Positions 10,017-59,477 of a DNA stretch of 64,000 bases are shown one piece after another. The first letter of the stretch is position 1. Every line of letters begins with the position of its first letter. This DNA is from Chloroflexota bacterium (GTDB lineage Bacteria > Chloroflexota > Anaerolineae > UBA4142), in assembly GCA_037440625.1 (NCBI GenBank), contig JBBITT010000017.1, forward strand, positions 1,767-65,766, written 5' to 3'. The notes beneath the pieces are model-generated. The model was not told the DNA's origin. It was given only the letters and a program-made list of their open reading frames with translations, and made no database searches. A program made the translations under genes and the position numbers.

Positions 10017-10639
10017 ACAAGGCATCGCAGCGGGACCAGCGTGTGACGCCCCTCCGCGTACTGGTCATTGATTTGGGATGTGGGCGCCAAAAAACGCCGG
10101 GAAGTTTTGGGGTGGATCAAGCCCCGTTGGAAAATGTTGACCTCGTGTGGAATCTGCTCGACTTTCCGTACCCTTTTGAATCCAACTCGGCAGAGCAGAT
10201 TATCTCACAACACACGCTCGAACATTTTGCGCCAGACGATGTGCTACGCATCCTTGCTGAAATCTACCGCGTGCTCAAGCCGGGCGGCACTCTGACCTTG
10301 ACATGTCCTCATGCTTTTAGTGTCGGCGCCATGCTCGATCCTACCCACAAATCATTTTGGACCTTTCGTTCCTTTGACTATTTTGATCGGCGCTATCCAT
10401 ATAGTTATTATGCCACAGCAGGATTTCATTTTGAGACGGTCGCACGCAAAGCATTCATCAACTTGTGGTTTCGCTGGGATCGCCCGCCGCGATGGAAACA
10501 ATGGATCAATGCGGCGCTCAGTCGAATGTTCAACTGGCTGCTTGCCCACAGTGAGACCTTGCCTGACGTACTCATCAAAGTGTTGCCTTTCTATCGCGTG
10601 GATATTTTTGTTACGTTGAGAAAAGGGGGAGATGACTAA
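10013..10639 (+). CDS. Class I SAM-dependent methyltransferase
   Basis: VLVIDLGCGRQK (motif I), VLKPGGTLTL; ATGA overlap with the upstream GT2 stop. Confidence 0.7.
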   Translation: MNKASQRDQRVTPLRVLVIDLGCGRQKTPGSFGVDQAPLENVDLVWNLLDFPYPFESNSAEQIISQHTLEHFAPDDVLRILAEIYRVLKPGGTLTLTCPHAFSVGAMLDPTHKSFWTFRSFDYFDRRYPYSYYATAGFHFETVARKAFINLWFRWDRPPRWKQWINAALSRMFNWLLAHSETLPDVLIKVLPFYRVDIFVTLRKGGDD

Positions 10640-14567: not shown

Positions 14568-15839
14568 TTGCAAATCTGTTTCGATATTTCGCCCGCCGTG
14601 CATCGCCATGCCGGGTTGGGACGGTACGCGCACGAACTCTTGTCCGCGTTGCTGACCCAGAATCAGACAAACGAATATATCGCGTTGTACAACTCGCCGC
14701 GGGCCGATCTGAGACCGGCAGCGCCACTGGATCGCTTGCCAACGCAACGGGTTCCGTTAGACGCCAAGCCGTGGCGAATGAGTGTGTGGTTGGCGCACGT
14801 GTTCAATCTTGGAATGGATCGCTGGTTGCCGCGTTGCGATGTGTTCCACGCCACCGATCATCTCTTGCCACCTTTCAAACACGCCAAAACCGTGTTCACG
14901 TTGCACGATTTGATCTTTCGCTTTTATCCCGAATATCACTTGCCGCTCAATCGGTGGTTTCTCACCATGGCGGTTCCACATTTTCTTCATCGTGCGGATG
15001 CGATCATCGCGGTGTCGGAATGCACCAAGCGCGACGCTGTGCGTTTGTACAACATCGCGCCGGAAAAAATTGCGGTCATTTACGAAGGTGTCAACCCAAC
15101 CTTGCAACCAGTAACCGATTCGAATCGTCTGGCTGAGATACGCGTGCGCTATGCCCGGCAACAACCGTTTATCCTTTTGGTCAGCACGATCGAACCGCGC
15201 AAAAATATTTCTGCGCTGGTGGACGCGTTGAAAATTTTGCGCGCGCGCGGTTTGCCGCATCGTTTGTTGATCGCTGGGCGCAAGGGGTGGCTCTATCAAC
15301 CCATCTTCGATCACGTCAAACAAGCCGGGATGAGTGAGGCGGTGGATTTCTTGGATTTTGTGCCGGATGATGATTTAGCGGCGTTGTTATCGGCGTGCGA
15401 TGGGTTTGTGTTTCCATCGTTGTACGAGGGCTTTGGCTTGCCGCCGCTCGAAGCGATGGCGTGCGGTGCGCCAGTGATTTGCGCCAACACGTCATCGTTG
15501 CCCGAAGTGGTGGGCGATGCCGCATTGTTGGTCAACCCGCGCAACATCGGCGAGATGGCGAATGCGATTGAGCGCGTGATCACAGATTCGATGTTACGCG
15601 ACACATTGCGCGCGAAAGGTTTAGTGCAAGCGAAAAAATTTTCGTGGGAGCGCGCGGCGCGCGAGACGCTCGCCGTCTATGAACGTGTGATAGTACCTTC
15701 CCACTTGAATCAGTGCACAAAAACCAAGGGTTCTTCATCCACGAAGGACACGAAGGTCAAGAAGAAGAAAACTATTTTTCGCGTTTCTTCGTGTGCTTCG
15801 TGGAAAAAAATCTGTTCAGTTTCGGCTTGTCCGAGTTAG
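14568..15839 (+). CDS. GT4 glycosyltransferase with an about 49-aa C-terminal tail encoded by a hairpin repeat
   Basis: TTG start LQICFDISPAVHRHAGLGRYAHE; FPSLYEGFGLPPLEAMACGAPVICAN; similarity to the other GT4 C-termini ends at AVYERVI (about nt 15692), then the frame reads through element 15739..15803. Confidence 0.75.
   Translation: MQICFDISPAVHRHAGLGRYAHELLSALLTQNQTNEYIALYNSPRADLRPAAPLDRLPTQRVPLDAKPWRMSVWLAHVFNLGMDRWLPRCDVFHATDHLLPPFKHAKTVFTLHDLIFRFYPEYHLPLNRWFLTMAVPHFLHRADAIIAVSECTKRDAVRLYNIAPEKIAVIYEGVNPTLQPVTDSNRLAEIRVRYARQQPFILLVSTIEPRKNISALVDALKILRARGLPHRLLIAGRKGWLYQPIFDHVKQAGMSEAVDFLDFVPDDDLAALLSACDGFVFPSLYEGFGLPPLEAMACGAPVICANTSSLPEVVGDAALLVNPRNIGEMANAIERVITDSMLRDTLRAKGLVQAKKFSWERAARETLAVYERVIVPSHLNQCTKTKGSSSTKDTKVKKKKTIFRVSSCASWKKICSVSACPS
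15739..15803. repeat. Imperfect inverted-repeat element (GAAGGACACGAAG family)
   Basis: ccacgaaggacacgaagg ... cttcgtgtgcttcgtgg, one mismatch; related arms at 18011..18046 and 38451..38519. Confidence 0.6.
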
Positions 15840-42033: not shown

Positions 42034-42060
42034 GTGGGACAAATTTCAAATTTGTCCTAC
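42034..42060. repeat. Palindromic element GTGGGACAAATTTCAAATTTGTCCTAC
   Basis: Same arms as 14529..14548 plus an internal 7-nt duplication (CAAATTT). Confidence 0.55.
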
Positions 42061-49185: not shown

Positions 49186-51096
49186 ATGAATCGGCAATCC
49201 ATCCATTCCCCCTTCATCGAACGCCTCGTGCTGGGGGCGATGCTCCTCCTTGCTTTGGCGGTGCGCCTTTATCGGTTGGAGGCGCAAGCCCTTTGGTGGG
49301 ACGAAAGTCTCAGCGTGTATCGTGCGACGCGCGATCTGGGCACCGTTTTATCGAACACGATTCTCATCCAGAATTTGGTTACGGTGGATACGTTGCCCCA
49401 GTTGTATTTTGTGCTCCTCAACGTGTGGGTGCGTGCGACGGGCATTAGCGAATACGCGCTCCGATTTTTCTCCGTGTTTGCCAACGTTGCCACGCTTCCG
49501 CTCATCTACGCGCTGGCGCGCCGATGGTTGAGCAAATCGGCGGCGTGGGTGGCGATGTTGCTGGGCGCGCTCTCGCCATTCTACACGTGGTACGCCCAAG
49601 AAGCACGACCGTATGCGTTGGTACTTTTTTGGAGCACGCTGGCGATTTATGCGTTGACGCGTGCATTGGATTCGCGCTCGCGTGTTTGGCTGATAACCTA
49701 TTTGCTCGCAGCCACGGCATCACTTTACACGCATTACTATTCGCTCTTTCTCTTGCCATTCCATTCGATTCTAATTGCAATGGCGTGGAGACCGAATATC
49801 AAGCGCGCGTGGATAGGGCTTCCCACGTTGCCGCTTCTCGGCGCGATTTTTTTGTTGCCGCAAATTCTTGCCAGCATGGCGGGCAACGTCAATTGGGGTC
49901 CCATCTTTGTCCCGCTCCCAACCATCTTGCTCGATCTGCTCAACTCGTTCAGCGTGGGCGTTACCGCTGATTTGAACGCGGTGTGGTGGATTGATGGGGC
50001 ATTACTGGTAGTGTTCGCCATCGGTCTAAGTCTCAAACCTCAAATCTCAAATCCCAAATTTGAGATTTGGAATTTGCGATTTGGGATTTTGGCTTTCGCC
50101 TATTTGCTGGTGCCGGTACTTGGAGTTTTTGTCGCGTCATTCATTCGCCCGTTGTATCAAAACTCGCGGTACCTCATTTCGATTAGCCCGGCGTTTTATC
50201 TGGGTGTGGCGGCGGGTATCGTTGTCTTGCGGCGGCGTTGGCAATGGATGGCGATCTCGGTAATTGCCGTGTACCTGCTTGGCGCGATCATCTCGCTGAA
50301 CAATTGGTATTTCAATCCACAGTTCGGCAAAGACGATCATCGCGGCTGGGCGGCGTCTCTGCGCGAGCGCGTGCTGCCCGGCGATTTTCTCATTCTCGAT
50401 TCGCCGCACACCGAAGAGCTGTATCGCTACTATGCTGACGATCTCGTGCCGATGATTACGCTACCGATTTTGCGCGCGGATGGTCAGCCCTCGCCCCAAG
50501 CCGATTTGGACGCCATCCGCCAAGCGTATCGCCAGCACGCGCGCGTGTGGTTTTTGGCTTTGCATGTCCCGTTCGATGATCCGTACCAACGCATCGAAAC
50601 ATTGTTGCATCAAGAAGGAGTGTTGATTGACCAAGCCCAATTTGCTGGCACGAGTACCGCGATCACCCTAGCGTTGTTTATGCCGACAATGCCGGTCGCA
50701 CAGCCCGGCGATGTTCCGTACCCACTCGATCTTGGATTTGCCGGCAATTTGCGTTTGCGCGGCTATGATGCGCCCACATCGTTGCGTACCAATCAACCCA
50801 ACTTCATCAAACTCTTTTGGCAACTGGACGAACCGGTGGGCGAAGATTATGCGGTATCGTTGCGCGTGGTGGATGACGCCGGTCAAGTCGTGATGCAACA
50901 CGATGCCGTGTTGTTGGGCAATCGTGCCGGCACATCCACATGGATGCCCAAGCAAATCCTGGTCGAGACGCGCGCCATCGTGTTGACGCATCCGATCGTT
51001 GCCGGAAAATATGCTTTGCAAGTGGTGCCTTATCACCTTGCGACCGGTAATGCGTTGGGCGAAGTGTTCACGCTGGCTGAGATTGAGGTACCGTGA
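49186..51096 (+). CDS. GT39/ArnT-type (GT-C fold) polyprenyl-phosphate-sugar-dependent glycosyltransferase, paralogue 1
   Basis: First-loop WWDESLSVY (D-E motif), about 11 TM helices, C-terminal beta-rich domain shared with 51868 and 57411. Confidence 0.75.
   Translation: MNRQSIHSPFIERLVLGAMLLLALAVRLYRLEAQALWWDESLSVYRATRDLGTVLSNTILIQNLVTVDTLPQLYFVLLNVWVRATGISEYALRFFSVFANVATLPLIYALARRWLSKSAAWVAMLLGALSPFYTWYAQEARPYALVLFWSTLAIYALTRALDSRSRVWLITYLLAATASLYTHYYSLFLLPFHSILIAMAWRPNIKRAWIGLPTLPLLGAIFLLPQILASMAGNVNWGPIFVPLPTILLDLLNSFSVGVTADLNAVWWIDGALLVVFAIGLSLKPQISNPKFEIWNLRFGILAFAYLLVPVLGVFVASFIRPLYQNSRYLISISPAFYLGVAAGIVVLRRRWQWMAISVIAVYLLGAIISLNNWYFNPQFGKDDHRGWAASLRERVLPGDFLILDSPHTEELYRYYADDLVPMITLPILRADGQPSPQADLDAIRQAYRQHARVWFLALHVPFDDPYQRIETLLHQEGVLIDQAQFAGTSTAITLALFMPTMPVAQPGDVPYPLDLGFAGNLRLRGYDAPTSLRTNQPNFIKLFWQLDEPVGEDYAVSLRVVDDAGQVVMQHDAVLLGNRAGTSTWMPKQILVETRAIVLTHPIVAGKYALQVVPYHLATGNALGEVFTLAEIEVP
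50032..50094. repeat. Inverted arrays of heptanucleotide repeats (CTCAAAT x4 / ATTTGAG-type x4-5) inside the coding sequence
   Basis: ctcaaac ctcaaat ctcaaat cccaaat | ttgagat ttggaat ttgcgat ttgggat tttggct; 63 nt, in frame (KPQISNPKFEIWNLRFGILA). Confidence 0.75.
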
Positions 51097-51866
51097 CCCG
51101 ACCCGAAGAAATGTTGATGCACCCGGAGGAATACCGGGTGATGTTCCAAGTCGAGAATGGGTATTGGTGGTATCGTGGTTTGCGCAACTTGCTCAAGCAA
51201 TTATTGCCACGTTACCTTCCGCGGGATGCCAACGCTCTCATCCTCGATGCCGGGTGTGGGACGGGCGCCAACCTGCAATTGTTGCAAACGTGGGGGCGCG
51301 TGATTGGGATTGATATCGCGCGTGAGGCACTCGATTTTTGTCGTGTGCGCGGCGTGCCTAGCGATCGCCTGCTTGCCGCGTCCGTAACCGCGCTCCCGTT
51401 CGCGGCGCAATCGTTTGACGTGGTCGTTTCGTTCGATGTCATTTGCAATATTCCGGATGATGTGGATGCGTTCGAACAGGTGGTGCGCATTTTGAAACCG
51501 GGCGGCTATTTCATCGTCCAGTTACCAGCGTATCAATGGTTGTGGAGCATGCACGATGTTGCCGTGGGGCATCAACGGCGGTACTCGTCGCGCGAGACAC
51601 GCGCCAAACTGGAACGCGCCGGCTTGCACGTCGTTCGTGTGTTGCACACCAATGCGTTGTTGCTTCCGTTGGTGGCAATCGAACGTTTACTGCGCCGATA
51701 TGCGATGGAGCATCACGCCCCAGTGGTTTCCGATCTGCAATTGAATGTGCCCGCGTGGCTCAATCAACTGCTTTCGATCATTTATCAAATCGAGATCGCG
51801 TTTGCCGCGCGCGTGGATTTTCCGATTGGACTATCCCTGATTGCGGTGGCGCAAAAACAAGTGTGA
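51093..51866 (+). CDS. Class I SAM-dependent methyltransferase
   Basis: LILDAGCGTGANLQLL, ILKPGGYFIV; GTGA overlap with the upstream gene. Confidence 0.75.
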   Translation: MTRPEEMLMHPEEYRVMFQVENGYWWYRGLRNLLKQLLPRYLPRDANALILDAGCGTGANLQLLQTWGRVIGIDIAREALDFCRVRGVPSDRLLAASVTALPFAAQSFDVVVSFDVICNIPDDVDAFEQVVRILKPGGYFIVQLPAYQWLWSMHDVAVGHQRRYSSRETRAKLERAGLHVVRVLHTNALLLPLVAIERLLRRYAMEHHAPVVSDLQLNVPAWLNQLLSIIYQIEIAFAARVDFPIGLSLIAVAQKQV

Positions 51867-51867
51867 A

Positions 51868-53772
51868 ATGAAAAAGTTTTGGCTTTTAGGATTGATTCTG
51901 CTTGCCTTTGTCGTGCGCATGTATCGGCTGGATGCCTTTGCCCTCCGCGGCGATGAATCGTTCACGGTGCTGTTTGTTCAGCGAACCTGGGAAGGATTAT
52001 GGCGCGGGATTAGCACCATCGAACCGAATCCGCCGTTGATGTATCTCGCGTTGCGGGTCTGGGTGGCGATTGCCGGCACAAGCGAATTTGTTACGCGGCA
52101 CTTTTCCGTGTTCTTTGGCATGCTGGGCGTGCCACTAATCTATCGGCTGGCGCGCGAAATGTTCAAATCACAGACGATTGCACTGACCGCCGCCGCGCTC
52201 ATCGCGATCAATCCATATCAGATTTGGCATTCGCAAGATGTGCGCAACTATACGATGTGGCCCACGCTCAGTTTGCTGGCGTTGGTTTTCTTTTGGCAAT
52301 GGTGGCGAAAGGAGACTACCGACTACCGACTACCGACTACCGACTACCGACTAGCGACTAACAACTACCGACTAACGACTAACAACTACCGACTAATTCT
52401 TTATGTGGCCGCCACACTCGCCAGTCTCTACACCCATTATTACGACGTATTCATCCTTGCCGCACTCAATCTGTTTGTGCTCACCTTTGCCAGCGTGGCG
52501 CGGCGATGGCAAACTTTGGTGCGATGGATTGGTGCGCAAGCGGCGTTGGTCTTGCTCTACGCGCCCTGGGTGCTCGTTGGAACGAATCGGATCACGACGT
52601 ACAATGAAGCAAGTGCGGAGCAAAGCGTCTCTTTGCTCGATGTGTTCAGCCGCACGCTTGCCGCGTTCATCGTCAGCGAAACGGTCCCGCGCGATGTGTG
52701 GTCAATGGTGTGGTTGCCACTCTCGCTTGCCCTCGTCGCGATTCTGGTCTATCTCGCCAAACGAAATCACGAACGTGCGCTCTTTCTCGCGCTTTACATT
52801 GCGGTGCCGACGTTGGCGCTGTACATCATTTCGATGGGGCGCCCCTTGTTTTTGGAACGGTATCTCAACGGCATCGCGCCGGCGTATTATCTGGTGTTTG
52901 CGGTTGGTATCGCCGCGCTGATTCAGAGGCGCACCTCACTCGCCAAGGTTGGGTTGATCGTTGCCGCGCTGTTTTTTATCGGCACATCGGTGTATGCCAC
53001 GTGGAATGCCAACTTTGATCCGGCGTTTGCCAAAGCCCCCCTATGGCGCGAAATGGCGCAAACGATTATCGCCCAAATGCGACCGGGCGATCTGGTCGTT
53101 CAGAATTTTACCGAGGTGTCGCCGTACTATTATCTCAATCCGTACGTACCCGTGTTTACGCTCCCGAAAGATTACTGGTTCACGCCGGCGGACGAACCAC
53201 TCTTGCGCCAATGGACTACCGAATATCGGCGGATCTGGTTTATTCCAGCACAACCGAATCAGTGGGACCCGGATCAACAGGTGGAAAAATTCTTGGCGCA
53301 CCATGCGGAACGGGTTTTCGAACGGCGGATGGGAACGTTACGCGTGCAACTGTATCTGACCCCGCGCGAGTTTGCTGCCAAAATCAATCCGCTGAATGCG
53401 CGCGTGGGTAATGCGACATTGACCGGTTATCACATTGAGCGCGGCAACCCGGTGCGCGTGGTGTTGTATTGGCGCGCGGAGCAACCGATCACCCAAGCGT
53501 ATAGCGTCTTTGTGCATCTGGCTGATGCGCATAACCAGATCGTTGCGCAACAGGATCGTGCGCCGGCGTTTGGTTGGTATCCCACCACCGAGTGGCAACC
53601 CGGCGAATCCATTGTGGATGTGTACGAATTGACGGTGGATGCGCCGGGCACATTCACGCTCATCGTTGGAATGTACGATCCAAACACGCTTGAACGTGTG
53701 CCGGCGTTTGATGCAAACGGTACGCGATTCACGGATGATCGCATCGTCCTGACGCAAATCACAATTCCATAA
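51868..53772 (+). CDS. GT39/ArnT-type GT-C glycosyltransferase, paralogue 2
   Basis: LRGDESFTV first loop, EPNPPLMY, C-terminal domain LTGYHIE...VVLYWRAEQP...YPTTEWQPGE. Confidence 0.75.
   Translation: MKKFWLLGLILLAFVVRMYRLDAFALRGDESFTVLFVQRTWEGLWRGISTIEPNPPLMYLALRVWVAIAGTSEFVTRHFSVFFGMLGVPLIYRLAREMFKSQTIALTAAALIAINPYQIWHSQDVRNYTMWPTLSLLALVFFWQWWRKETTDYRLPTTDYRLATNNYRLTTNNYRLILYVAATLASLYTHYYDVFILAALNLFVLTFASVARRWQTLVRWIGAQAALVLLYAPWVLVGTNRITTYNEASAEQSVSLLDVFSRTLAAFIVSETVPRDVWSMVWLPLSLALVAILVYLAKRNHERALFLALYIAVPTLALYIISMGRPLFLERYLNGIAPAYYLVFAVGIAALIQRRTSLAKVGLIVAALFFIGTSVYATWNANFDPAFAKAPLWREMAQTIIAQMRPGDLVVQNFTEVSPYYYLNPYVPVFTLPKDYWFTPADEPLLRQWTTEYRRIWFIPAQPNQWDPDQQVEKFLAHHAERVFERRMGTLRVQLYLTPREFAAKINPLNARVGNATLTGYHIERGNPVRVVLYWRAEQPITQAYSVFVHLADAHNQIVAQQDRAPAFGWYPTTEWQPGESIVDVYELTVDAPGTFTLIVGMYDPNTLERVPAFDANGTRFTDDRIVLTQITIP
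52314..52397. repeat. Heptanucleotide tandem repeat, 12 units (GACTACC x5 perfect plus 7 variants) within the coding sequence
   Basis: gactacc x5, gactagc, gactaac, aactacc, gactaac, gactaac, aactacc, gactaat; encodes TTDYRLPTTDYRLATNNYRLTTNNYRLI. Confidence 0.9.
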
Positions 53773-55988
53773 TGTCCAAATCTCAAACCTCAACCCCCCA
53801 ATCCCAAATCATCAGTGATTTTGCTGCGCTGGTGTTCATCGCCGCGCTAGTTTTGCTTTTCTTTTGGCGCATCCTCACGCCGCGTTTGGAAGACCGCGCC
53901 GTCTTTCCGCCCGGCGATTTTACCGATCAGTTTTGGATGTTCCGTGTCTATGAAGCGCGCGCGTTTGCGCAAGGACGCTTGCCACTGTGGTCAGACAATT
54001 TCAACAGTGGGCATCCCTTCCTCGCTGATGTGCAGAGCGCGCTTTTTTATCCGATCGGTTTGGTGTGGACACTCCTTGTCGTTGCAACGCGCGGCGCAGA
54101 TTTTACATTGTTCGATTTAGAAGTTGAAGCGATTTTGCATTTCATACTTGCCGGCGCGTTCACGTATTTGTTTGCCAAACGCTTGCTCGGCTCGCGCATC
54201 CCTGCGTTGGTGAGCGCGCTCACTTTTACGTTCGGCGGTTATCTCACCTCCTATCCGCCGCAACAACTCGCCATTCTGGAAACGGCAACGTGGCTACCGC
54301 TAATTTTATTGTTGTTGGATTACGCCCTCGAACGCGGCTGGCGTTATTACCTTGGGGCAGGGGTCGCGCTGGGCGTTGCCGCGTTGGCGGGGCATCCGCA
54401 GACATTGATGTTTGTAGGTTATGCGAGCGTCATTTATTTTGTGTGGCGCGCCCGACAAAACTCAAATTCTCCATCTGCCAGGAATTGGATTTTGAGATTT
54501 GGACTTGATTTATCACTTGTTCTTTTCATCGCCGCCGGCATTGCCGCCGCGCAATGGCTCCCCAGTCTCGAATATCAAATGGTCTCAACGCGTGCCGCCC
54601 TTTCGTGGAAAGATGCCGCCAGCGGTTTCCCCACACTCGATCCTCTGCAAATGATTTTGCCGGGCTATGCTAGCGCGTTTCAATCGCCGTTGTATATCGG
54701 CATCTTGCCGCTGTGGTTTGCGCTCTTGGCTTTGTTCATTCAGCGTTCGCGCGAGAAAATATTTTGGCTTGGACTCGCGCTCGGCGCGCTCATTGTTTCA
54801 TTTGGTTTCTACGTGTTTGGGTACGCCTTGTTTTATCTCTTGGTGCCCGGCTTTGCGCTGTTTCGCGGTCAAGAACGACTTGCCTTCATCATTAGTTTTT
54901 CACTGGCGATCCTCGCCGGGTACGGTTTGCGCGATTTGATGCAAGCATCGTTCGATGGAAAACGGGCGCGCCGGCTGTGGGCATTGCTACCGGCCGGCAT
55001 CGTCGTCAGCGTGCTGATGCTGTTCACGATGTACATCGCCGCGCGCGAGTACCAAACCGGCCGATTATTCTTTCTCACGGATCGCGCCGGGCTGATGGCG
55101 TTATTGTTTGGGCTGGCAAGTGTGGTCGCGCTGGTGCTGATTCAACGCCGGCAAGGGGCTTTGGGACTCGCGCTTGCGCTAATCGTCTTTGATCTGTTTA
55201 GCATCAATAACGCCCTGTATAACGCTGACCCCACGCCACGATTCCCGGCGACGCCCATCATCGAAACAATTCAAAACGATGCCGGGATTTTCCGGGTGGT
55301 GGATGAAGGGACGCAACCCGGGCATTTTGGCATTGCGTATAATCTCGAAGAGATCGGCGGGATTAGCCCGCTGCGCATCGCCTACTATAATCAATTGCTG
55401 GACGAGTTGCCCGCAGAAAATTTGTGGCGCCTGCTGAATGTGCGGTACGTGCTGACCCAGCGCCCCAGTTTGGCGCACGCCGATTTGGTTACCCAAGACG
55501 GCGAGGCGCGCTTGTTTCGTTTGCAAACCCAAATGCCACGCGCGTGGCTAGTCGGCACAGCGCAACTGGCGGACGATGCGAACGCGCTTGCCGCGATGCA
55601 AAATGATTCCTTCGATCCGCGCGCCATCGTTTATCTCGCCGAGGCGCCGGCATTTTTGCCGGTGCCCAATGCTGCGTTCACCCCGGTTACCTTTGAACAA
55701 CGCGACCCGGAACATTTTACGCTGACCTTCAACACGCCCACTGATTCGATTTTGGTGTTGAGCCACACGTATTATCCCGGTTGGCGCGCGACGGTTGACG
55801 GCGACGCCGCGCCGATTCTGCGCGCTAACGTTGCGTTGCAAGCGATTGCCGTGCGCGCCGGCGCACATCGCGTTGAAATGAGTTTTGAGCCGTGGTCGGT
55901 GAAGGTGGGGATTGCGATTTCTATTTTGACCATCGGGGTGCTCGTGGTTGGGACCGTCTTGAAAGGTAGGAAGGCAAATGCAACTTGA
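53772..55988 (+). CDS. YfhO-like polytopic membrane glycosyltransferase (GT-C)
   Basis: GDFTDQFWMFRVYEARAFAQGRLPLWSDNFNSGHPFLADVQSALFYP resembles the YfhO N-terminal signature; TAATG overlap with the upstream gene. Confidence 0.55.
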   Translation: MSKSQTSTPQSQIISDFAALVFIAALVLLFFWRILTPRLEDRAVFPPGDFTDQFWMFRVYEARAFAQGRLPLWSDNFNSGHPFLADVQSALFYPIGLVWTLLVVATRGADFTLFDLEVEAILHFILAGAFTYLFAKRLLGSRIPALVSALTFTFGGYLTSYPPQQLAILETATWLPLILLLLDYALERGWRYYLGAGVALGVAALAGHPQTLMFVGYASVIYFVWRARQNSNSPSARNWILRFGLDLSLVLFIAAGIAAAQWLPSLEYQMVSTRAALSWKDAASGFPTLDPLQMILPGYASAFQSPLYIGILPLWFALLALFIQRSREKIFWLGLALGALIVSFGFYVFGYALFYLLVPGFALFRGQERLAFIISFSLAILAGYGLRDLMQASFDGKRARRLWALLPAGIVVSVLMLFTMYIAAREYQTGRLFFLTDRAGLMALLFGLASVVALVLIQRRQGALGLALALIVFDLFSINNALYNADPTPRFPATPIIETIQNDAGIFRVVDEGTQPGHFGIAYNLEEIGGISPLRIAYYNQLLDELPAENLWRLLNVRYVLTQRPSLAHADLVTQDGEARLFRLQTQMPRAWLVGTAQLADDANALAAMQNDSFDPRAIVYLAEAPAFLPVPNAAFTPVTFEQRDPEHFTLTFNTPTDSILVLSHTYYPGWRATVDGDAAPILRANVALQAIAVRAGAHRVEMSFEPWSVKVGIAISILTIGVLVVGTVLKGRKANAT
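53775..53809. repeat. Direct heptamer array (CCAAAT family), half element at the 5' end of the CDS
   Basis: tccaaat ctcaaac ctcaacc ccccaat cccaaat. Confidence 0.55.
54461..54505. repeat. Degenerate inverted heptamer element (CTCAAAT ... TTGAGAT TTGGACT) inside the CDS
   Basis: ctcaaat tctccat ctgccag gaattgg att ttgagat ttggact; encodes SNSPSARNWILRFGL. Confidence 0.45.
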
Positions 55989-57414
55989 TCGAACTGATTC
56001 ACGCGTGCGTAATGGGTTCATCGTCCTCGTTGCCATGCTGCTTGCCATTGCCGGCAGTGCCACCATCGCGTTCGTTCATCCACTTGTTCCGTTCGCGGTC
56101 ATCATTGGCATGGTCATCGGCGCGATCATTCTATCGAACATCGAGTTTGGGATGTACGCCGTGATGGCCATCGCGGTGCTATTGCCGTTCGCCGCGCTCC
56201 CGCTCAATATCGGTTTCAATCCAACCTTTCTCGATCTTGCGCTTGTCGCGGTGTACGCGATGTGGTTTACACGCGTGATGACGCGTCAAGCCGAACATGG
56301 TTTTGTCGCCACGGTATTAGGTTTGCCTATCCTGACGTTTCTCATTCTCGCTATCTTTTCATTCATCGCCGGCACCGCGCACGCACCGATTACCACGCAG
56401 GTCTTGCGCCAGTTCGCCGAAGTGCTGGCGGCGATTGCGTTCTTCTTCGTGATCGTGAACACCGTGCAGACGCGTGCAATGCTTAGACGCTATGTGACCG
56501 CGCTCATCCTTGCCGGCTTTGTCTCCGCGTTCATCGGGATCATTCTCTATGTGCTTCCCCGTGACCTGACGATCATGTTGCTCTCGTTGTTGCGCGTGTT
56601 CAAGTATCCTTCGGGTGAAGGGGTTTTGCGTTTCATCGAAGATGATCCCAACAATCCGATGCGTGCGATCTCGACCTCGATTGATCCGAACGTGTTGGGC
56701 GGTTTGATGATTTTGGTTACCGCGCTCGCCGCGCCGCAACTCTTTGCCGAGAAACCGTTGTTGCCGCGCAAACTTGTGCTCGTCATGGTTGGCACGATGT
56801 TTGTGTGTTTGGTGCTGACGTTTTCACGTGGAGCCCTGTTGGGCTTGGTGCTGGCATTGACCGTGATCGCCACCGTACGCTATCGTCCGATGATCGCCTT
56901 GATTTTGCTGGGCGCGATCGTGTTCTTGTTCTTGCCGTTCACGCAAGAATATCTTGGGCATCTTTTGGATGCGTTCACGCTGAGCGACCGAGCGACCCAA
57001 ATGCGACTGGGCGAATACAAAGATGCGCTCACGCTGATTTCGCGTTATCCATTTTTTGGCGTGGGCTTTGGCGGCTCACCCGATATTGACACCTACCTTG
57101 GTGTATCCAGTGTCTATTTGTTGATGGCAGAAGAAATGGGCTTGATTGGCTTGAGCGTGTTTCTCATCATTATGGGCACCTTCTTTTATCAAGCGCTCCA
57201 AGCGTGGTTTGCGCGGATTGCCCAAGACAAATTTCTCGCGCCGATTTTGTTGGGAATCGCCGGGGCGTTGCTCGGCGCGATGATCGGCGGTTTGGTGGAT
57301 CACTATTTCTTCAATCTCCGATTTCCGCACTCGGTCGTCTTGTTTTGGTTGTTCGTGGGGCTGGGGATGGTGACGATTCGATTGAGCAACCCTAACGCTG
57401 ACGAACTCCAATGA
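55978..57414 (+). CDS. O-antigen ligase/polymerase-family (Wzy_C) membrane protein
   Basis: About 11 TM helices, TFSRGALLGLVLAL motif, periplasmic loop region. Confidence 0.7.
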   Translation: MQLDRTDSRVRNGFIVLVAMLLAIAGSATIAFVHPLVPFAVIIGMVIGAIILSNIEFGMYAVMAIAVLLPFAALPLNIGFNPTFLDLALVAVYAMWFTRVMTRQAEHGFVATVLGLPILTFLILAIFSFIAGTAHAPITTQVLRQFAEVLAAIAFFFVIVNTVQTRAMLRRYVTALILAGFVSAFIGIILYVLPRDLTIMLLSLLRVFKYPSGEGVLRFIEDDPNNPMRAISTSIDPNVLGGLMILVTALAAPQLFAEKPLLPRKLVLVMVGTMFVCLVLTFSRGALLGLVLALTVIATVRYRPMIALILLGAIVFLFLPFTQEYLGHLLDAFTLSDRATQMRLGEYKDALTLISRYPFFGVGFGGSPDIDTYLGVSSVYLLMAEEMGLIGLSVFLIIMGTFFYQALQAWFARIAQDKFLAPILLGIAGALLGAMIGGLVDHYFFNLRFPHSVVLFWLFVGLGMVTIRLSNPNADELQ

Positions 57415-59477
57415 AGATTCCGCAGCGCGTTTGGGTCCCTGCAATTCTCCTCGCCGCGTTCGCCGTGCGAATGTTTCGGCTGGGCGCGGCAAGTTTGTGG
57501 TACGACGAGACGGTGAGCGTTTACCTTGCGCAACAGAATCTCGTCGAACTCACCTGCCACACCGCTGGCGATATTCATCCTCCGCTGTATTATTATCTCT
57601 TGCACTTTTGGGGCAACCTTGCCGGCTGGTCCGAATTGGCGATGGCGTTCGTCTCGCTCGGCTGCGATCTTTTGCTGATTGCCCTCGTTTATCGTGTGGC
57701 GCGCGCGTGGCTCGACAAACAGGTTGCCACCCTTGCCGCGTTTCTGGTAGCGATCTCGCCGTATCACGTGTGGTACTCGCAAGAAGTGCGAATGTACACG
57801 CTCGGCGCGCTGCTGGGACTGGCATCGGTTTATTTTCTTGTGCGGTTGATTAGTCGTCAGGCGTCAGGCACCACTCGCCAGTCCATTTTCTCGCGCGACT
57901 TGATCGCTTATGCGATTATCAGCGCGCTGGGTTTGTATACGCTCTACTATTTTGCTTTTCTGATTGTCTTTGAAAATCTTGTCGCCTTTGTTTGGCTTAT
58001 TCGCCATTCAAGATCACGGCTTGATTTGCGATTGGGAAATTGGAAGTTGGGATTGGTAACTTGGGTTTTCTCCCAACTTGCCATCCTTGCACTCTATCTG
58101 CCCTGGGCGCCCATCGCCTTCCGCCAAGCCACCGATCCCCCCGTTCCGCCGTGGCGTTCCTTCACCGCGCTCCCGCAAGTTCTGCTCGAATCGTTTTCCG
58201 CGCTCACGCTGGGACAATCCATTGACCCGCTGATAGCATCGCCGGTGCTATTCATCGTTGTGGTCGTGATGCTCATCGCATGGTGGCGGAACCGCTTACT
58301 GCCGACTACCTACCGCCGACTGCCTACTGTGTTGTTCCTACTTGGTTATACCTTGATCCCACTTGCGCTCATCTATACGCTTTCGCTTTGGAAACCGCTC
58401 TACCATGTCCGCTATGTTTTCATCTATTCGCCGGCGTTTTACATCCTGCTCGCAATGGGTTTAGAGAAGATTCGCCATTCGTCATTTGCCGTTCGCCGTT
58501 TGCGTTTTGCGTTTTACGCTTTACTCTTTATTCTGCTCACCGCCTCTGGCTTTTCGATCTACAATTTTTGGTTCAACCCTCGTTATGCCAAAGACGATTT
58601 GCGCGGCGCGGTGAATTATCTTGCGGAACGTTGGCGACCCGGCGATGCGATTCTCCTCAACGCCGGCTACACCTACACCGCGTTCGTGTACTATTATGAT
58701 CAACCGATCGCGTGGCGCGGACGATTGACTGCGTACACCGCGCAGAACGCCCAGGAGGGTGCAATCGTTTTGCAAACCGGCTCGATCGGCGGCGCACCGA
58801 ACCTGGGCTGGGGCGATCCGCGTTCCGATTTTTACGCGACGACCGCTGACGAAACGCGTGCCGCGCTCGATCGAGTCTTTGCCGCGCACCCGCGCGTGTG
58901 GATGCTCCGCTTGTACGATACGGTGGTTGACCCGGCCGGTATCATTCGCGATTATCTTGCCACACGTGGGCGCCTCATTGACGATCAAGGATTCGCTGGC
59001 GAATCCTACGCGCGTGTGCAAGGTTATCTCACCTCGCCTTTGCCAACGACGACCTTGCCCTCCACGCTCACACGCCGCGATGTGTTGCTGGGTAATCGAA
59101 TTGGGTTGCTGGGCTTTGAGCCGGCATCGTTGACAGTACACGCCGGGCAAACGATTGACGTGAACGTGTACTGGCAAGCCAAAGAACAAACGAATGTGGA
59201 CAGCCATCTTTTCATCGGGGTGTACGCAGAAGATGGTGCGCTGGTTGCTTCAACCGAAGAAATTCCCATCGGCAATGCGCTAGGCACATCACGTTGGACT
59301 CCCGGCGAAATTTTGCGCCACCCCATTCGTATGCGTCTCCCGGTGCATCTGGCACCGGGTCTTTACAACTTGCGCGTCACACTATACAATCCGCTCACCA
59401 ACGAACCCTTGAGCGCGCCGCCAAATGTTGCGGACGCAAGTCAAATTATGCTGACCCAGATTCGAATCGAAAAATGA
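57411..59477 (+). CDS. GT39/ArnT-type GT-C glycosyltransferase, paralogue 3
   Basis: LWYDETVSVY first loop, GDIHPPLYYYLLHFW, C-terminal LLGFEPA...VNVYWQAKEQ domain; ATGA overlap. Confidence 0.75.
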   Translation: MKIPQRVWVPAILLAAFAVRMFRLGAASLWYDETVSVYLAQQNLVELTCHTAGDIHPPLYYYLLHFWGNLAGWSELAMAFVSLGCDLLLIALVYRVARAWLDKQVATLAAFLVAISPYHVWYSQEVRMYTLGALLGLASVYFLVRLISRQASGTTRQSIFSRDLIAYAIISALGLYTLYYFAFLIVFENLVAFVWLIRHSRSRLDLRLGNWKLGLVTWVFSQLAILALYLPWAPIAFRQATDPPVPPWRSFTALPQVLLESFSALTLGQSIDPLIASPVLFIVVVVMLIAWWRNRLLPTTYRRLPTVLFLLGYTLIPLALIYTLSLWKPLYHVRYVFIYSPAFYILLAMGLEKIRHSSFAVRRLRFAFYALLFILLTASGFSIYNFWFNPRYAKDDLRGAVNYLAERWRPGDAILLNAGYTYTAFVYYYDQPIAWRGRLTAYTAQNAQEGAIVLQTGSIGGAPNLGWGDPRSDFYATTADETRAALDRVFAAHPRVWMLRLYDTVVDPAGIIRDYLATRGRLIDDQGFAGESYARVQGYLTSPLPTTTLPSTLTRRDVLLGNRIGLLGFEPASLTVHAGQTIDVNVYWQAKEQTNVDSHLFIGVYAEDGALVASTEEIPIGNALGTSRWTPGEILRHPIRMRLPVHLAPGLYNLRVTLYNPLTNEPLSAPPNVADASQIMLTQIRIEK
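58020..58070. repeat. Heptamer array (TTGNGAT family, inverted orientation only) inside the CDS
   Basis: ttgcgat tgggaaa ttggaag ttgggat tggtaac ttgggtt; shares atttgcgatt-ggga with 50073..50086. Confidence 0.5.
58297..58331. repeat. Degenerate GACTACC-family heptamer tract inside the CDS
   Basis: tactgcc gactacc taccgcc gactgcc tactgtg; encodes LLPTTYRRLPTV. Confidence 0.5.

Follow-up and report, generated by a model that had tools for sequence, protein, structure and literature searches.

How a tandem array of 7-nt units, arranged as an inverted pair, came to lie in frame within the gene for a membrane glycosyltransferase is the question raised by the locus described here. The gene, GT-C1 (49186..51096), belongs to a 64-kb stretch of DNA (54.8% G+C; hereafter the window) on contig JBBITT010000017.1 of a Chloroflexota bacterium from the class Anaerolineae, and the array takes up 63 nt of it (50032-50094). 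A first-pass annotation of the window had seen in this array something like the palindromic elements inserted in frame in Rickettsia genes, and had also likened it to the heptamer repeats of cyanobacteria. Our results are best explained if these 63 nt are a heptanucleotide microsatellite, made up of two short arrays inverted with respect to each other, of a class found in abundance in one set of Anaerolineae lineages.

An in-frame inverted heptamer array

The array consists of four direct heptamers followed by five inverted ones, just as first described, and its two arms encode different parts of the protein:

50032..50059, + strand: left arm, four direct heptamers (CTCAAAC CTCAAAT CTCAAAT CCCAAAT), free of G, encoding L283-K291 in a polar and basic loop
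50060..50094, + strand: right arm, inverted heptamers (TTGAGAT TTGGAAT TTGCGAT TTGGGAT TTTGGCT), encoding F292-A303, the end of the loop and the start of transmembrane helix 295-317

The array begins 846 nt past the ATG of its open reading frame (ORF), is aligned with the codons and spans 21 of them (residues 283-303, peptide LKPQISNPKFEIWNLRFGILA). Tandem Repeats Finder (TRF) resolved it into two abutting arrays of period 7, one of 4.1 copies (50031-50059) and one of 4.6 (50058-50089). Head-to-tail 7-nt units of this sort are what defines heptanucleotide simple sequence repeats (SSRs) and long SSRs (LSSRs). A repeat search returned inverted arms of 25 nt each (50028-50052 and 50058-50082), 80% complementary and separated by a 5-nt spacer. 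Folded as RNA, the 63 nt reach -26.7 kcal/mol with a central 13-bp stem (z = -4.36), a value equalled by 0 of 200 dinucleotide shuffles. The claim that the array is both in frame and capable of forming a hairpin is thus borne out, and a stop-free, hairpin-capable segment within an ORF is a trait shared with the Rickettsia palindromic elements (RPEs). At most two neighbouring units of the array are identical, and its length is unchanged in locus L001, the close relative described below. Programmed ribosomal frameshifting at the array was considered and dropped, since a single frame is kept throughout and homology extends on both sides.

Persistence and turnover at the orthologous loop

We aligned the GT-C1 loop across 46 orthologues (50-88% identity) and compared the loop DNA at 15 orthologous loci. 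In most orthologues the two transmembrane helices that flank the loop are linked by a variable peptide (e.g., NSKSQIANPKFGIWDLRFGI, NSKLRIANCELRI, NSKSRITNYEFRI, and NSKFEIRNSTGGSRISNLESRI), and these peptides are 7-aa periodic, as a 7-nt repeat translated through three frames would make them. Heptamer periodicity at the loop was found in L002, L003, L004, L005, L011, L013, L014, and L016 as well as in many database proteins, with units that differ between them. The orthologous arrays are often palindromic, and their units include AATTCGC, AATTCAA, and CGAATTA. Five of the loops are arranged as follows:

L003: TTTGGGA x4
L004: CAATTCG-type units, then GAATTGC
L005 (10905-11030): AAATTCA/GCGAATT palindrome, whose exact centre is occupied by a nested CACGCAA x7 array
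L011: AATTCAA x4, then GAATTTN
L013: CGAATTA x4

The CACGCAA unit of L005 appears again in the YfhO-like gene of that locus (15559-15603). Insertions and deletions among the GT-C1 orthologues come in 7-aa (21-nt) steps, as in proteins P0009 and P0011, which are without the PKFGIWD of P0006. In several orthologues the loop is reduced to five residues, FRRAA, so the array segment is dispensable. The right-arm peptide FGIWDLRFGIL, which is part of the transmembrane helix, is well conserved in the nearest dozen or so orthologues. The paralogue GT-C2 has its own periodic segment: in nearly all of its 45 orthologues, FFWRWW is followed by peptides with a 7-aa period (e.g., RLEIRDWRLEIG...NLQSPISNL and EWRVASGEWRAASGE), and the window's version of this segment is a GACTACC array.

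These comparisons do not uphold the idea of a discrete insertion of the RPE kind. Rather than being cleanly present or absent, arrays occupy the same loop in most orthologues, with graded lengths, other units, and no consensus with defined ends, and the best candidate for a dispersed copy extends over 36 nt at 83% identity. Orthologues at 50-95% amino-acid identity that carry periodic arrays of graded length and other units mean that the 50032 array is old, resident, and turning over, not recent. We also looked for distant orthologues that have the same peptide without nucleotide periodicity, which the first-pass annotation had named as the mark of ancestral protein sequence, and there were none, since the orthologues too show the nucleotide periodicity. 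The hairpin was strong in five of the seven orthologous loops tested (z = -4.4 in the window, -3.8 in L002, -3.9 in L004, -4.6 in L011, and -2.5 in L005) and was missing, though the array is kept, from L003 (z = +0.5) and L013 (z = -0.2).

Heptamer arrays across the lineage

We ran TRF on the window and 80 related loci (1.29 Mb together), with a score of at least 38 as the threshold for an array. The related loci were fetched via their GT-C genes, densities away from GT-C genes rest on flanks of up to 10 kb, and the gene calls are greedy ORF calls. Period 7 was the commonest tandem period by far (248 of 1049 TRF rows). Period-7 arrays above the threshold numbered 81 in the 286 kb of the window and L001-L016, 58 in the 419 kb of L017-L042, and 5 in the 584 kb of L043-L080, which come from more distant Chloroflexota. 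Three local shuffles of the whole set yielded none, against 144 in the real sequences. The arrays therefore go beyond compositional expectation, as LSSRs do, and the period-7 excess, measured on loci rather than complete genomes, is lineage-wide and includes non-coding DNA. In the array-bearing lineages (about 700 kb), arrays were distributed at the following densities:

Non-ORF DNA: 6.0 arrays per 10 kb
Interiors of GT-C/YfhO-type genes: 4.5 arrays per 10 kb
ORF termini (first or last 10%): 2.6-2.8 arrays per 10 kb
Other ORF interiors: 0.47 arrays per 10 kb
Other polytopic membrane ORFs: 0.42 arrays per 10 kb

The non-ORF arrays are denser near GT-C genes, yet even where the nearest GT-C gene is over 3 kb away they reach 3.35 per 10 kb. 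Within ORFs of at least 150 aa we counted 220 of 245 arrays.

The CCAAAT family had been noted only inside the GT-C operon, and for the window this is correct. All period-7 and period-14 TRF arrays of the window lie between 50031 and 58515; CAA or TTG triplets recur three or more times at 7-nt spacing solely at 50034, 50060, 53777, and 54485, and the sole other CAAA[TC] run with this spacing is a pair of units at 42040. Beyond the window the restriction fails: CCAAAT is one of many heptamer units, and related genomes have such arrays in non-ORF DNA too, where their density is similar or higher. Heptamer repeats are not exclusive to GT-C genes, which are instead the part of the coding DNA that tolerates or attracts such repeats. 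Inverted pairs account for 15 of 42 non-ORF arrays vs. about 8 of 100 GT-C arrays, and because such pairing is at least as common outside ORFs, it characterises the repeat class rather than the mRNA. One intergenic palindrome, at 13550-13708 of L039, is 160 nt long and folds with z = -6.6.

A metagenome scan with CAAATCY x3 gave at least 120 matches in varied contexts on contigs of 32-69% GC, none of them in GT-C-like ORFs among the matches listed; by a rough estimate this 17-base pattern gives about as many matches by chance, so the scan is uninformative on Anaerolineae. As a separate observation, a GT-C-type ORF of L028 contains a TTGGTCA x4.3 array (10471-10500), whose unit we take to be that of one classical family of cyanobacterial short tandemly repeated repetitive (STRR) sequences.

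Host genes and position in the protein

GT-C1 is the first gene of a tightly packed operon (49186-59477), in which a methyltransferase gene stands between GT-C1 and GT-C2:

49186..51096, + strand: GT-C1, PMT_2/GT39-type ArnT-like membrane glycosyltransferase, 636 aa, Pfam PMT_2 at 43.1 bits (cut-off 26.1)
51841..53772: GT-C2, glycosyltransferase paralogue, hosting the GACTACC array
53772..55988, + strand: YfhO-like gene of the GT-C fold, Pfam YfhO at 83.4 bits, hosting two arrays
55978-57414: Wzy_C/O-antigen-ligase-like gene
57411..59477: GT-C3, glycosyltransferase paralogue

The assignment of GT-C1 to the GT-C fold glycosyltransferases (PMT_2/GT39, ArnT-like) agrees across profile match, sequence motif, and fold. 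D39 and E40 in the first extracytoplasmic loop are invariant across 46 homologues, every one of which comes from a Chloroflexota/Anaerolineae metagenome-assembled genome (MAG). The AlphaFold2 model has a mean predicted local distance difference test (pLDDT) score of 83.8, and its best Foldseek matches are the ArnT structures 5f15 and 5ezm (E = 4e-7), with other GT-C enzymes also nearby. The C-terminal beta-sandwich of the model (residues about 500-636) matched the Wzt carbohydrate-binding domains 6o14 and 2r5o in Foldseek, which suggests a glycan-binding periplasmic domain.

In the same model, residues 287-294 fall below a pLDDT of 50 and helix 295-317 begins inside the right arm. With the C-terminal domain placed in the periplasm by analogy with GT-C enzymes of the ArnT type, counting the helices back from it predicts a cytoplasmic array loop. 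The positive-inside rule concurs, as the array loop contains K284, K291, and R298 and the cytoplasmic loop after it RRR348-350, and the same topology would make the conserved loops 235-262 and 318-326 periplasmic. The remaining arrays of the window, placed by paralogue alignment, helix parity, and the positive-inside rule, would likewise all lie in cytoplasmic loops or the N-terminal tail. The G-free, A/C-rich arm encodes K, N, Q, S, and P and its T/G-rich complement F, I, L, W, and G; with polar residues from one arm and hydrophobic ones from the other, an inverted array is naturally tolerated at a boundary between loop and helix.

Other arrays in the window and changes between close relatives

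The three further sites named by the first-pass annotation (53775-53809, 54461-54505, and 58020-58070) are all present, and three arrays of other families accompany them:

52314..52395, + strand: GACTACC array of 12 units in GT-C2 (TRF 11.7 copies, score 122), encoding TTDYRLP-type 7-aa periods after FFWQWWR
53775..53809, + strand: half-array TCCAAAT CTCAAAC CTCAACC CCCCAAT CCCAAAT in codons 2-13 of the YfhO-like gene, no predicted structure (fold z = +0.2)
54461..54505, + strand: degenerate inverted array of the CTCAAAT-type family in the YfhO-like gene, encoding SNSPSARNWILRFGL, weak hairpin (z = -1.4)
58020..58070, + strand: ATTTGG/ATTGGG-type half-array in GT-C3, encoding RLDLRLGNWKLGLVTW in a loop aligned to GT-C1 residues about 205-218, moderate fold (z = -2.5)
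58297..58331, + strand: GACTACC-related tract in GT-C3, in the loop shared with the 50032 array (TRF, repeat search, and paralogue alignment)
58468..58550, + strand: ATTCGCC-to-TTTGCGT "morphing" heptamer array in GT-C3, encoding a predicted cytoplasmic loop and the start of a transmembrane helix

The half-array of the YfhO-like gene (53774-53809) and the left arm in GT-C1 (50024-50059) are 83% identical across 36 nt, and the order of their unit variants also matches, which suggests copying between the loop of GT-C1 and the N-terminus of the YfhO-like protein. Positions 54491-54506 and 50059-50074 are 94% identical. By paralogue alignment the tract at 58297-58331 and the 50032 array do occupy one loop, just upstream of RPLY..RY, and the earlier observation that two distinct heptamer families fill this loop in two paralogues was correct. 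The first five units of the GACTACC array are perfect. The array at 58468-58550 is T-rich, and its neighbouring units drift by 1-2 nt along its length. A permissive Rfam search of 47.5-61.5 kb gave only one match, at chance level and away from the arrays.

L001 and the window are 93.9% identical in nucleotide sequence across 15.5 kb, and within genes they differ appreciably in length at two places only, the GACTACC array (21 nt, three units) and 58468-58550, where the array is replaced. GACTACC units number 12 in the window, 9 in L001 (13129-13188), and 6 in L081 (about 1690-1735), an in-frame series of three-unit steps; together with the 7-aa indels at the 50032 loop, it amounts to the length polymorphism in whole units that is typical of heptanucleotide SSRs. 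The ATTCGCC/TTTGCGT array at 58468-58550 is fully exchanged in L001 (19262-19330) for CCTCACG/TTACTTT units. Synteny between L001 and the window stops just upstream of a relA/spoT-like gene, and the flanks (1-6439 in L001, upstream of 45627 in the window) differ. A flank-anchored metagenome scan for length variants of the GACTACC array had no matches.

All the length differences that we saw are 21-nt steps, with one doubtful split gene besides. In L013 the YfhO-like gene (15180-15480) is split across two frames around an ACGAATT x5.6 array; with one unit more or two fewer, the gene would be in frame again. The L013 MAG has a further frameshift away from arrays and a name that suggests about 3x coverage, and its split gene may be an error or an OFF allele. 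In a frameshift screen of all GT-C-type genes, a broken frame coincided with the array in 1 of about 100 arrays. We rejected the many frameshifts of L020 as OFF alleles, as they are unrelated to arrays and an error-prone long-read assembly is suspected, and likewise the apparent gene splits of L009 (6585-6705) and L016 (about 10860), which are runs of N. Since these runs lie directly at arrays, the arrays evidently tend to break short-read assembly or scaffolding.

Many GT-C2 orthologues also have an in-frame insert of 25-45 aa between YRLAREMF and IALIAAALI, of the type SVIASxxxAKQSP...RLLRFARND (e.g., L009 6300-6425), which the window lacks at about 52165. The insert contains an imperfect GC-rich palindrome whose fold is not significant (z = -0.8). 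It is like a dispersed element, distinct from the heptamer arrays, and nearer to the RPE idea than they are.

Origin of the arrays

We think it probable, though well short of certain, that the arrays are STRR-like heptanucleotide microsatellites that originate by slippage and template switching and are filtered by selection to dispensable loops. Slipped-strand mispairing would add or remove whole units, and template switching or gene conversion would make the inverted half and pass unit variants among nearby arrays. Coding arrays would survive only if they are free of stops, preserve the frame in their net length, and encode a harmless peptide. The need for a frame-preserving net length would be why changes are seen as three-unit steps (21 nt, 7 aa). 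In the GT-C fold, cytoplasmic loops and N-terminal tails would accommodate arrays on all three counts, with the A/C-rich arm supplying a polar, positive-inside loop and its T/G-rich complement the interfacial residues at which the following transmembrane helix begins. The peptide would then be a dispensable linker of variable length, presumably neutral, and the hairpin a side effect of the palindromic architecture.

Several results sit awkwardly with an origin by slippage and filtering. GT-C/YfhO genes are preferred ten-fold over other polytopic membrane ORFs, for which tolerance alone is not an obvious explanation, and the Wzy-like genes of the same operons (window and L001-L016) have 1 array in 8.3 kb vs. 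5.8-11.6 per 10 kb. Units are identical between sites in 8.1% of cases within the same genome vs. 2.3% between different genomes (permutation p = 0.013). AATTACG, for example, occurs at five sites in separate genes of L010 (10913, 14694, 15440, 20589, and 21081) and AATTCGC at three in L004 (1361, 4286, and 5911), while the orthologous sites of other genomes carry other units. This recurrence reads as concerted evolution between dispersed arrays, and such genome-specific sharing calls for an extra process, gene conversion or a trans-acting constraint. Periodic arrays are also kept at the same loops over about 50% protein divergence, which is long for a neutral microsatellite, and the sampling is centred on GT-C genes, in loci rather than complete genomes of the clade. 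As the ten-fold preference, the unit sharing, and the long persistence are not fully explained, other explanations stay alive at low probability.

One of these is a miniature mobile or templated element, in which hairpin-forming heptamer cassettes are inserted or copied into preferred sites (hairpin tips, loops), as with RPEs and the small dispersed repeats of cyanobacteria. Several sites per genome carry genome-specific units, 50024-50059 and 53774-53809 share their 36 nt down to the order of variants, the CACGCAA x7 array of L005 is nested at the centre of an older palindrome and its unit recurs in the YfhO gene, two genomes of 94% identity have entirely different arrays at one site, and different families occupy one loop of two paralogues. 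We nevertheless consider such an element unlikely, for the repeat comparison found no full-length consensus, defined termini, or target duplications, array lengths change by unit steps, and the arrays are orthologous over large divergence rather than polymorphic in presence. No transposase or RAYT-like gene lay beside the arrays among the ten ORFs scanned in the operon region, and the replacement is explicable by homologous recombination with a divergent allele. Contingency loci, where heptamer slippage toggles GT-C surface-glycan enzymes by frameshift or tunes loop length and so diversifies glycans (e.g., against phages), are in our judgement about as unlikely. Because 7 is not a multiple of 3, a single-unit change shifts the frame, and non-triplet SSRs do lie in and just upstream of surface-structure genes here, clustered in paralogous envelope glycosyltransferase genes, in first codons, and in upstream regions as in lipopolysaccharide genes of Haemophilus and Neisseria; a phase-variable heptanucleotide SSR is on record for H. 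influenzae HMW1A (PMC8262952). There are also perfect tracts of 4-6 units or more (GACTACC x5, CGAATTA x5.3 in L010, x10 in L021), close relatives differ in unit number (12, 9, and 6), and in L013 the reading frame of the YfhO-like gene breaks at the array. However, the length differences are all in-frame steps of three units, and that single broken frame among about 100 GT-C-type arrays comes from the MAG with a second frameshift and low nominal coverage. The 50032 array, with at most two identical adjacent units, is a poor slippage substrate, and arrays lie mostly mid-gene in loops rather than 5'-proximally and also in non-ORF DNA distant from GT-C genes.

A functional mRNA or DNA hairpin under selection, acting in ribosome pausing at membrane insertion, in operon transcription or mRNA stability, or as the site of a heptamer-binding protein, seems to us quite improbable. 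The strong hairpins of five of seven orthologous loops have differing stem sequences, which resembles covariation, and the presence of genome-specific units at several sites would be in keeping with a trans-acting binder that co-evolves with them. Yet arms copied from each other make such "covariation" automatic, and the hairpin is lost in L003 and L013 despite the retained array. The other sites of the window fold weakly or not at all, inverted pairing is commoner in non-ORF arrays, the whole segment is missing in some orthologues, and no Rfam family matched. That the segment is ordinary ancestral protein sequence with coincidental nucleotide periodicity has a practically negligible chance, even if FGIWDLRFGIL is conserved among the nearest orthologues and forms part of a helix. 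Selection on protein cannot yield a 7-nt periodicity read in three frames, and some orthologues have a loop of only 5 residues; ancestral sequence and chance periodicity were both rejected, as shuffles contained no such arrays and the units vary among orthologues while the periodicity stays. A small but appreciable chance belongs to an active lineage-specific process that copies a genome-specific heptamer into fixed GT-C loops, N-termini, and upstream regions, so that the arrays would be hypermutable cassettes switching or tuning envelope glycosylation in free-living Anaerolineae. The copying could be hairpin-targeted and templated or amount to directed gene conversion, and a trans-acting heptamer RNA/DNA binder might take part in it.

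Comparison with known repeat systems

Non-triplet microsatellites are usually kept out of coding DNA; here one protein fold bears them at close to intergenic density (4.5 vs. 6.0 per 10 kb) in many species. For protein evolution, these genes are a natural case of repeats creating new loop and helix sequence, with complementary arms giving a polar loop and a hydrophobic helix. For annotation and assembly the arrays matter too, because they break assemblies and their 7-aa periodic peptides show up in annotated proteins. Should one of the less probable explanations prove true, Chloroflexota envelope biogenesis would gain its first described contingency-locus or repeat-cassette system.

RPEs are about 100-150 bp long, have a family consensus, vary in presence between orthologues, and stand in frame in Rickettsia ORFs. 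The arrays resemble them as hairpin-capable, in-frame DNA in protein genes that encodes a tolerated peptide away from the active site, but differ in having no consensus beyond the 7-nt unit, in being variable in length, and in being orthologous. With the SSR contingency loci of Haemophilus, Neisseria, and Campylobacter (HMW1A, PMC8262952; reviewed in PMC11868660) they share non-triplet SSRs at envelope glycosylation genes or their 5' regions and polymorphism in unit number. They differ from these loci in showing no OFF alleles save one doubtful case, and in their degenerate units, mid-gene loops, and free-living environmental hosts.

The likeness to cyanobacterial STRR heptamers drawn by the first-pass annotation is apt. 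That prokaryotes have heptanucleotide SSRs in excess is established (Mrazek et al., 2007, as summarised in PMC4679880 and PMC4692102). Cyanobacteria, Xanthomonas, Burkholderia, and Beggiatoaceae are known cases, in which the repeats are mostly intergenic (PMC4692102, PMC4679880). As those summaries present the LSSRs of Mrazek, Guo & Shah (2007), tandem 7-nt units are over-represented, sporadic and lineage-specific, with lengths that change in unit steps and slippage as the presumed cause, all of which our arrays have in common with them; non-triplet units lie there mainly outside coding regions, whereas the arrays here are mostly in frame within one protein fold, often in inverted pairs, and kept at orthologous loops. 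The heptamers of Calothrix and Nostoc (STRR), GGGGAYT of Nostoc, GGGAATC of Xanthomonas (PMC4692102), and TAACTGA of Beggiatoaceae (PMC4679880) likewise form several families per genome, with 3-12 units and 7-nt indels between strains, and those of Xanthomonas are occasionally arranged as inverted, stem-loop-capable pairs (PMC4692102). These repeats are mainly intergenic or in 5' untranslated regions, and TAACTGA is untranslatable in its forward orientation. Units, host phylum, and coding location all differ here: the arrays come from Anaerolineae/Chloroflexota MAGs, 220 of 245 lie in ORFs, and in the strict sense they are not cyanobacterial STRRs. Anaerolineae are not among the hosts in PMC4679880 or PMC4692102, and in the literature searched we found nothing linking heptamer repeats with Chloroflexi or Anaerolineae. 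The arrays are of the known LSSR/STRR kind and not a new system, while their combination of in-frame inverted pairs, concentration in a single fold, persistence at orthologous loops with turnover of units, and 21-nt steps appears to be undescribed.

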